Source: an uncultured Pseudomonadales bacterium (GTDB lineage Bacteria; Patescibacteriota; Microgenomatia; UBA1400; PJMF01). Taken from it: a DNA stretch of 64,000 nucleotides. Positions 34,903-35,682 of this stretch are shown piece by piece (positions within the stretch are counted from its first letter, which is position 1; each line of letters begins with the position of its first letter). The position numbers and the translations under genes are program-made. Below the pieces are notes generated by a model, which saw only the letters and a program-made list of their open reading frames with translations, did not search any database and had not been told where the DNA came from. The stretch covers positions 57,718-121,717 of the forward strand of contig CAYOQI010000004.1 of assembly GCA_964406075.1 (NCBI GenBank), written 5' to 3'.

Positions 34903-35682
34903 TTACAAAACCAAAATCAAATAAGCTAACGCTAAACCAATTAGGAAAATAAATAACATCAAGACAATATTGATAATAACGGTGGTTTGTATTTGAAAAC
35001 GAGCCAGAGGATTTCTACCAATTGCTTCAATACCCGTTCGCGCAATTCTGCCAAAGAAGATGAAGCCTAAAATAAATGCGGCTAACACGACGATTGCTGC
35101 CAGAATGTATCGTAAAGCAGCCAGTGGTGTTAAGACAGGCGCAGCTAATCCTTCTCTCAACGCTGCAAATAGATTTGAACTGACATCAGTAAATGCGGTC
35201 GTTGGATGAATATTCAAAGAAACTAAAATGATGCCTGTCGCTTCAGGATCATCAGACTCGTAGTTCTCTAAGGCCAAACCTAAAACATATCCATTCCTGG
35301 TTGCTCGCTGAGCAAGGCCTGGTTTCCGTGAACTTGCAATCAAATCACCAGCCGTAATATTTCCATTTTCAGAGCTCACTCGAACTAAGGTTTTCCCATT
35401 TGTAACGGTGAGCCTTTGTGCGCTATCAGTGGCTTCATCAAAAAAAGAAGCTGCTGGATTGTCAGTCACCACACCATAGGTGGAAGAACTATACGAATCA
35501 TCACATAAGTGATAACCATCTTGGCTGGCACAGACGAGATCTCCTTCAATGACAGTATCATTGATTATTGTGACTGGAAGTGCTACTGATGAGGAACTGA
35601 CCTGAGCAAAGATTCTTACAGGTTGTTGACTGAAGATAAGAAAAGAAAGAATGAGAAATAAAATGAGCAGAAATTTTTTCAT
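34903..35682 (-). CDS. secreted-domain protein with a C-terminal ATP synthase c-subunit-like two-helix hairpin lacking the ion-binding carboxylate
   Basis: The track ORF is 34903..35829. I prefer the ATG at 35682, which gives [27 protein letters not shown], a signal peptide. The C-terminus [44 protein letters not shown] resembles a c-subunit loop (R-N/Q-P) and helix 2, but has Leu where the conserved Glu/Asp would align. Confidence 0.6.

Follow-up and report, generated by a model that had tools for sequence, protein, structure and literature searches.

The window, as the whole stretch of 64,000 nucleotides analysed here is called, comes from a bacterium of the candidate phyla radiation (CPR) and carries on its minus strand an F-type ATPase operon of eight intact open reading frames (ORFs) in the order c*, iPGM, b*, delta*, alpha, gamma, beta and epsilon. 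The gene that heads the operon, here called c*, encodes a signal peptide, an extracytoplasmic beta domain and a C-terminal hairpin of two transmembrane (TM) helices, and this hairpin is a diverged, genuine homologue of F-type c subunits. No gene for subunit a was found in the operon or elsewhere in the window. The gene and its parts are as follows:

34903..35682, minus strand: c*, 259 residues, comprising the signal peptide, the beta ectodomain and the c-subunit-like hairpin
35605..35682, minus strand: signal peptide, residues 1-26 (MKKF...IFA/Q), with A26 and Q27 conserved and an AlphaFold2 helix at residues 2-18
35128..35604, minus strand: extracytoplasmic beta domain of about 160 residues, residues 27-185, with C51 and C60 invariant
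34906..35127, minus strand: c-subunit-like hairpin, residues 186-259 (first TM helix, TM1; cytoplasmic loop; second TM helix, TM2; C-terminus outside)
35008..35016, minus strand: R223-N224-P225 loop motif, the equivalent of the R-Q/N-P loop of c subunits
34954..34956, minus strand: codon of L243, aligned with the ion-binding Glu/Asp of c subunits

The ORF as annotated is longer, with 308 residues (34903..35829, minus strand) from a GTG start at 35829. A search of 5.8 billion proteins returned more than 446 homologues, nearly all of 250-265 residues, and in an alignment of 120 family sequences the start of most members corresponds to an internal methionine of this ORF, giving a length of about 255 residues; the window has an ATG at that place, at 35682. 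Because most family members begin at this internal methionine, the gene is assigned to 34903..35682, and judging from the alignment the extra 49 residues of the longer ORF (35683..35829) are probably not translated. The cleavage site that follows from this start, A26-Q27, is well kept, A26 in 106 and Q27 in 118 of the 120 sequences. The AlphaFold2 model of c* has a mean pLDDT of 91 and places the hairpin helices at residues 186-223 and 225-258. Given the signal peptide and the positive charges in the loop (R212, K/R215, R223 and R/K229), the beta domain and the C-terminus are placed outside and the loop inside, which is the topology of subunit c, with both ends outside and the R-N-P loop in the cytoplasm.

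The hairpin and its relation to subunit c

The top Pfam match of the hairpin is ATP-synt_C (PF00137), aligned over profile positions 3-60 of 60 with E 2.7e-4 to 8.6e-4, and half of the family hairpins searched (15 of 30) match the same profile, with a best E of 3.8e-5; the NCBIfam subunit c equivalogs match weakly, at 12-16 bits against cut-offs of 71-128. Comparison of a full-family c* profile with all PDB sequences gave 11 matches, nine of which are c subunits, and the best of these is the Spirulina c15 ring (E 0.0026, a 47-residue ungapped alignment). By hhalign, 186 hairpins aligned to nine canonical c subunits with a probability of 89%, E 2e-6 and 68 ungapped columns, a supporting test only. 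In a Foldseek search with the hairpin every match was an F-type c subunit (identity 23-32%, TM-score 0.72-0.88): the bacterial and chloroplast rings (Chloroflexus, Bacillus OF4, PS3 and chloroplast) at about 30% identity and TM-scores of 0.74-0.88, and the mitochondrial and mycobacterial subunits at 23-26% identity. Some JGI records already auto-label members of the c* family 'subunit c'. It is conceivable that a generic two-helix hairpin resembles subunit c by chance. However, this can be given almost no weight, on two grounds: the independent sequence methods all return c subunits, and c* sits exactly at the place of atpE in F-type operons, a context that effectively refutes a chance match.

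Although the homology is clear, the residues that define an ion-translocating c subunit are gone. At the ion-binding position the 186 distinct family hairpins have I, A, V, L, M or G (L243 in the c* of the window), and none of the 186 has an Asp or Glu in either TM helix. The GxGxGxG packing motif is likewise absent from TM1 across the family, where the consensus is SFxLGFxYFGR with a mean of about two Gly. In the loop, by contrast, the R is invariant among the 186 hairpins and the N and the P are each kept in 185, and this R-N-P loop with its flanks forms the best-conserved stretch of the whole protein. In c subunits the R-(Q/N)-P loop contacts gamma and epsilon; such conservation indicates that the R-N-P loop of c* is under constraint. 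A polar stripe runs along TM2 (Q/E232, N/H238 and T/M242, at +7, +13 and +17 from the loop Pro) and recurs in the c* of Microgenomates and of Parcubacteria alike; position 238 is His in 64 of the 186 sequences and Asn in most. Twelve of 30 family hairpins also weakly match the NCBIfam 'MPN157 family protein' (NF045739, a Mycoplasma pneumoniae family), with a best E of 0.0036.

Comparison with AtpE (PF00137, COG0636) identifies a shared two-TM hairpin with the ends outside and the R-(Q/N)-P loop inside, and a gene that in both cases leads an operon shared with b, delta, alpha, gamma, beta and epsilon. In contrast to AtpE, c* has neither the TM2 Asp/Glu nor the TM1 GxGxGxG, scores below the Pfam gathering score, is fused to a signal peptide and a 160-residue ectodomain (or, in Parcubacteria, to a helix-turn-helix (HTH), a TM helix and an ectodomain), and has no partner gene for subunit a that was found nearby. 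In summary, c* descends from subunit c, yet falls outside the functional c subunits by curated score, by carboxylate and by Gly motif.

These results bear out most of the initial annotation, which had described two hydrophobic helices joined by a polar R-N-P loop, a likeness to c subunits with Leu at the ion-binding position and the Gly-rich motif of helix 1 missing, and a signal peptide and an outward-facing domain of about 160 residues ahead of the hairpin. It had also allowed that the likeness might be that of a generic two-TM hairpin; profile and structure searches, with ATP-synt_C at the top and c subunits alone from Foldseek, place the resemblance with c subunits specifically. The C-terminal peptide it quoted agrees exactly with the sequence and is 65 residues long, not the 70 given for it; the span with which it was listed, 34903..35115, holds 70 codons and a stop.

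The F-type operon among CPR bacteria

The genes downstream of c* in the window are as follows:

33205..34890, minus strand: iPGM (cofactor-independent phosphoglycerate mutase), between c* and b*
32595..33203, minus strand: b*, a diverged F-type b of 202 residues with an N-terminal TM helix and a long helix
32129..32605, minus strand: delta*, a diverged delta/OSCP of 158 residues, N-terminally shortened
30665..32113, minus strand: F1 alpha, with the P-loop GDRKTGKT and the Arg finger RRPAV
29790..30668, minus strand: F1 gamma
28344..29753, minus strand: F1 beta, with [26 protein letters not shown] and NELSAED intact
28081..28347, minus strand: epsilon, 88 residues, beta sandwich only

Given that alpha and beta have all catalytic motifs intact and reach 300-440 bits in comparison with solved F1 subunits (412 bits for beta with that of Bacillus PS3), the F1 part looks catalytically competent. 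The stalk genes were identified by profiles built from 66 orthologues of b* and 56 of delta*: the top PDB match of the b* profile is ATP synthase b (E 5.6e-8) and the delta* profile matches delta/OSCP in the PDB (E 3e-9), with a Pfam OSCP match for delta* at E 0.016, which marks b* and delta* as true homologues of b and delta at the level of sequence profiles. The parts of the stalk nevertheless look eroded. Epsilon is without its C-terminal inhibitory helices, alpha is about 14 residues shorter at the N-terminus than canonical alpha, with most of the delta-binding helix gone, delta* aligns to roughly the C-terminal two thirds of delta only, and b* has about 60 extra residues between the two segments that match canonical b. 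Alpha and delta are shortened at the very ends where the two normally bind each other.

With one genome scanned per GTDB species, 185 relatives came to light, and 80 loci were analysed together with flanks of 10 kb; they belong to Woesebacteria, Levybacteria, Amesbacteria and other Microgenomates. Complete genomes that hold the operon are CP055307.1 (Woesebacteria Ch104b) and OZ246419.1, and it is present on the 1.0-Mb contig CAZFGX010000001.1. The counts given here refer to 83 Microgenomates loci, to 84 sequences when the window is added to these, and to 87 loci when three from Parcubacteria are included. Alpha, gamma and beta lie downstream of c* in 67 of the 83 Microgenomates loci, and in ten of the 13 loci without an alpha match the sequence ends less than 3.5 kb beyond c*. 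Contigs sampled among those that encode homologues keep this gene order. Of the 67 operons, 42 contain iPGM, and b* and delta* are present in 68 and 59, respectively, of the 84 clustered sequences. The start and stop codons within the operon often overlap or lie a few bases apart. Several of the metagenome-assembled genome records that hold the Microgenomates-type operon bear the title 'uncultured Gammaproteobacteria' or 'Pseudomonadales', apparently through an error of labelling.

A profile of the hairpin alone, compared with 1.84 billion representative proteins, gave 632 matches at E <= 1e-3 and 366 at E <= 1e-10, and in these proteins the hairpin is always at the extreme C-terminus. Most are 250-270 residues long; matches of 73-135 residues are in all likelihood parts of proteins cut off on short contigs and not hairpins that stand alone. 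One class, of 390-590 residues and from Parcubacteria such as Sungbacteria, has an N-terminal MerR/HTH_17-type HTH, a linker, a TM helix, the beta domain and a carboxylate-less hairpin, with Leu at the ion-binding position and likewise no Asp or Glu in the TM helices. The three Parcubacteria loci have the order HTH-c*, b*, delta*, alpha, gamma, beta, epsilon and no subunit a, and their b* and delta* are clearly orthologous to those of Microgenomates (E 1e-25 to 1e-40). The fusion, whose phylogenetic distribution the initial annotation had raised as a question, is thus spread over Microgenomates with an HTH-TM variant in Parcubacteria, and because Parcubacteria share the operon, the c* system is old and conserved in two CPR superphyla rather than a local peculiarity. 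In two of the three Parcubacteria loci, phosphoglycerate kinase (PGK) and triosephosphate isomerase (TIM) are encoded just upstream of the operon, at 3496..6778 in L084 and at 4225..8389 in L086.

The absence of subunit a, and of a canonical c, was assessed over 10 kb on each side of the loci and over the 64-kb window. No subunit a was found within 10 kb in the 87 loci, and no gene table has an ATP-synt_A Pfam label. All-against-all clustering of 1734 ORFs from the 84 sequences yielded no further conserved family, and for this reason no candidate for subunit a emerged. A stand-alone small c gene nearby was considered and rejected, as a canonical-c hidden Markov model picks out c* alone among the 1734 ORFs. 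Hairpins of the c type without a carboxylate are found inside mixed rings, such as those with the Acetobacterium woodii c1 double hairpin and those of V-type proteolipids, and in these rings other hairpins retain the carboxylate and subunit a is present. By comparison, c* differs from the mixed rings in that a carboxylate-bearing c was not seen alongside it.

Given that the search for subunit a was confined to operon neighbourhoods and the window, and that the polar stripe of TM2 is conserved in both superphyla with a His at position 238 in about a third of the sequences, c* might still be an ion-translocating rotor whose binding site is non-canonical (Q/E232, N/H238, T242) and whose partner, subunit a, is encoded at a distant place in the genome. 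However, the chance of this is judged to be slim: the carboxylate position is hydrophobic in 186 of 186 hairpins, position 238 is mostly the non-ionisable Asn, subunit a occurs in none of 87 operon neighbourhoods and the Gly-rich packing motif is gone. No rotary ATPase is known to function without a carboxylate in its c-ring.

The same losses, of subunit a and of the carboxylate, together with the truncation of alpha, delta and epsilon and the existence of lineages without b and delta or without F1 genes nearby, could also be those of a decaying ATP synthase remnant that has no current function in genome-reduced symbionts, and Mahendrarajah et al. mention 'minimal complexes' in CPR bacteria generally. 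The probability of this is put very low indeed, in view of the eight intact ORFs and the intact catalytic motifs, the invariant residues common to 185 species-level genomes and 632 representative clusters, and the ectodomain, which is a gained and conserved feature rather than a lost one.

The ectodomain and the divergent giant gene

Upstream of c* and divergent from it, the window holds the following features:

36772..52173, plus strand: giant surface protein gene, 5133 residues, divergent from c*
50548..50835, plus strand: domain of the giant protein paralogous to the c* ectodomain, residues 4593-4688 (BLASTP E 7e-7)
35683..36771: AT-rich intergenic region, 1.09 kb, that separates c* from the giant gene

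The fold of the c* ectodomain resembles those of phage capsid decoration or cement proteins and of the C-terminal fragment of phi29 gp12. This likeness to decoration proteins and to the gp12 auto-chaperone (Peptidase_G2/IMC) is at the level of the fold only, with 10-17% identity, and the ectodomain has no Pfam match (PF11962 included) and no PHROG match; unlike the phage proteins, it is tethered to a membrane hairpin. The paralogous domain of the giant protein has weak matches of its own to Peptidase_G2 (E 0.097) and to tail-fibre PHROGs. A second giant ORF lies further along the plus strand (52448..59968, 2506 residues) and has no detectable similarity to the c* ectodomain.

The giant protein begins with a MerR-type HTH (residues 10-57), followed by a TM helix at about residues 161-184 and then by a huge repetitive extracellular part; an HTH followed by a TM helix and thousands of extracellular residues is an unusual, membrane-tethered HTH architecture. 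The intergenic region, in which there is no Rfam match and no tRNA, presumably holds the promoters of both genes. Of the 83 loci, 77 have an HTH-led ORF upstream of c* and divergent from it; its length is usually between some hundreds and over 3000 residues, with most of these ORFs cut by the end of the locus. About 20 of the giant ORFs group with c* in BLAST comparisons. Parcubacteria have, as divergent neighbour, a stand-alone MerR/HTH protein of 73-74 residues, and the HTH and TM module is fused to c* itself. The HTH module is a constant companion of the c* system; it may serve cytoplasmic interactions, or it may regulate, as the divergent layout typical of MerR genes would suggest. The view that regulation of the MerR type is the sole reason for which the giant neighbour is conserved was considered and is partly true; it does not explain the shared beta domain.

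The linkage of c* to the HTH or giant gene in 77 of 83 loci, and the presence of an ectodomain paralogue in the giant surface protein, raise the possibility that c* is a membrane anchor or oligomerisation module for a surface beta domain and that its linkage to F1 is historical or regulatory. Consistent with this, three loci have c* and the giant gene and no F1 genes in the 6.9-10 kb downstream: L019 (c* at 4970..5746), L037 (2785..3465) and L061 (9884..10711). After iPGM, in place of the F1 genes, L019 and L037 encode an HTH-led protein of about 660 residues. A role of c* as an anchor alone is nevertheless considered unlikely for two reasons. The R-N-P loop and its flanks are the best-conserved part of the protein, which a plain anchor would not need, and the order c*-b*-delta*-alpha-gamma-beta-epsilon is kept, with its genes tightly packed, in two CPR superphyla. 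The initial annotation had proposed a degenerate rotor-ring relative reused as a membrane anchor or oligomerisation module; the degenerate c relative stands, and the mere generic anchor does not. Because c* heads an F-type operon and its R-N-P loop is invariant in the Arg, a c subunit that belongs to an atypical ATPase is the better reading.

A putative non-pumping ATPase compared with mycoplasma motors

From the sequence of c* and of the genes around it, it is very probable that c* serves as membrane subunit in an F-type ATPase that has no subunit a and does not pump. Rotary ion translocation needs both the carboxylate of subunit c and the Arg of subunit a. Because c* is without the carboxylate and no subunit a was found, the complex would not translocate H+ or Na+ by a rotary mechanism and would act as an ATPase only, with which an epsilon that is without inhibitory helices is consistent. 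In such a complex c* would oligomerise in the membrane and its conserved loop would dock gamma and epsilon, and F1 would therefore be membrane-bound. The energy of hydrolysis would appear as torque or as a conformational change of gamma-epsilon-c* relative to b*2-delta*-alpha3beta3 and would be relayed by the hairpin to the ectodomains, which form a crown on the outer side of the membrane. This crown would act on surface structures, the likeliest target being the giant HTH-anchored surface protein encoded next door, which is the best candidate because it contains a domain paralogous to the c* ectodomain.

The steps of this proposal differ in strength. It is on balance favoured, from the genes present and by analogy, that c* is the membrane ring or anchor of a non-translocating ATPase that couples ATP hydrolysis to the cell surface. 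That the complex passes mechanical work to surface proteins is an idea drawn by analogy and is put forward as possible, with less than even confidence. A c*-ring that is turned or flexed by F1 and carries a phage-decorator-like crown acting on the giant surface proteins is a tentative picture, and equally tentative are the actions that may be named as examples, namely moving, tensioning, assembling or resetting host-attachment fibres.

Several observations weigh against an a-less, surface-acting ATPase. The Pfam score of the hairpin, 19.9-21.6 bits, is below the ATP-synt_C gathering score of 24. Two loci, L063 (1472..6321) and L073 (10001..14754), have c*-alpha-gamma-beta-epsilon without b* or delta* and so have no peripheral stalk, and in L019, L037 and L061 c* and the giant gene occur with no F1 genes in the sequence downstream. 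With no subunit a, the TM helix of b* has no visible stator partner, and the stator is uncertain. That subunit a and a canonical c are missing holds for the 10-kb flanks and the 64-kb window only. The structure model of c* is that of a monomer; the ring, the docking of gamma and epsilon and a contact between the ectodomain and the giant protein are predictions that go beyond it. Finally, given the lone HTH of 73-74 residues in Parcubacteria, the divergent neighbour is possibly kept mainly as a MerR-type regulator.

F1-ATPases that work without an ion-translocating membrane part have a precedent in mycoplasmas, functionally the nearest analogue of the proposed CPR complex, and the systems compared here are those of Beven et al. 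2012 and Berlureau et al. 2026 and the Mycoplasma mobile G1-ATPase (PDB 9io5). The mycoplasma Type 2 and Type 3 F1-like X0 ATPases have alpha, beta, gamma and epsilon, whereas homologues of a, b, c and delta are absent; the N-terminal helix is missing from alpha, and these ATPases energise surface proteins; Type 2 is needed for gliding and Type 3 for antibody cleavage by MIB-MIP, presumably by force across the membrane (PMC3369863; PMC12994834). Their 'Protein 5' consists of a signal peptide, a large domain and, at the C-terminus, two TM helices with a short loop (PMC3369863; PMC12994834). Examples of Protein 5 are MSC_0620, with the C-terminal TM helices at residues 707-768, MMCAP2_0577 and MMOB1650. 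In M. mobile, PGK is a physical component of the F1-like motor and co-purifies with it (PMC8406192).

The CPR system shares with these ATPases the F1 subunits alpha, beta, gamma and epsilon, an alpha whose N-terminal helix is missing, the lack of an ion-binding c and, as far as was found, of subunit a, and a host-dependent bacterium with a reduced genome. A glycolytic enzyme accompanies both, PGK in M. mobile and iPGM, PGK and TIM beside the CPR operons. The likeness of Protein 5 and c* is one of architecture, in the signal peptide, the large domain and the two C-terminal TM helices. Unlike the mycoplasma systems, the CPR system retains b and delta and its two-TM subunit is recognisably derived from subunit c, and no conserved genes equivalent to the 12-TM 'Protein 1' or the cytoplasmic 'Protein 2' are present in the 84 Microgenomates sequences. 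Given that the CPR beta is closer to the canonical Bacillus beta (412 bits) than to the beta of the G1-ATPase (317 bits), an independent origin is suggested. Taken together, these differences set the CPR system outside the mycoplasma X0 family, probably as a separate development.

If F1 does drive such a c*-ring, the CPR system is a second, independent invention of the principle of the mycoplasma F1-like X0 ATPases, many of the 'F-type ATP synthases' of Microgenomates and Parcubacteria are ATP-driven motors and neither pumps nor synthases, and the retention of an 'ATP synthase' in CPR bacteria that have no respiratory chain would be easier to explain. The subset in question comprises 632 representative clusters and, in the scan, 185 GTDB species across the two groups. 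With no ion-binding residue in its c subunit and no subunit a in the operon, scoring 'F-type ATPase' as energy conservation or generation of a proton motive force in these genomes is probably wrong, which alters the reading of a widely cited CPR trait. The system would also stand as a natural intermediate between a true F1Fo and the mycoplasma F1-like X0 motors, one in which the origin of the membrane subunit can still be read and which could help to show how a rotary ATPase comes to serve a new role at the cell surface. It would point, too, to a concrete connection of ATP hydrolysis with the giant surface proteins that episymbiotic CPR bacteria carry.

As the initial annotation had supposed of the fusion, no published description was found of the c* fusion, nor of an a-less F-type operon in CPR bacteria; literature searches on Microgenomates, Woesebacteria and CPR bacteria gave generic statements. 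The supplement of Mahendrarajah et al. lists one Woesebacteria genome with a single positive ATP-synthase column and says nothing on the c* system. Elsewhere in the window, at 8041..14076 and 22743..24865, are genes for a sortase, a VirD4/TrwB-like ATPase, a VWA protein, ComEC, ComEA and a type IV pilin-like protein with an N-methylation motif, a neighbourhood typical of the surface and uptake machinery of CPR bacteria.

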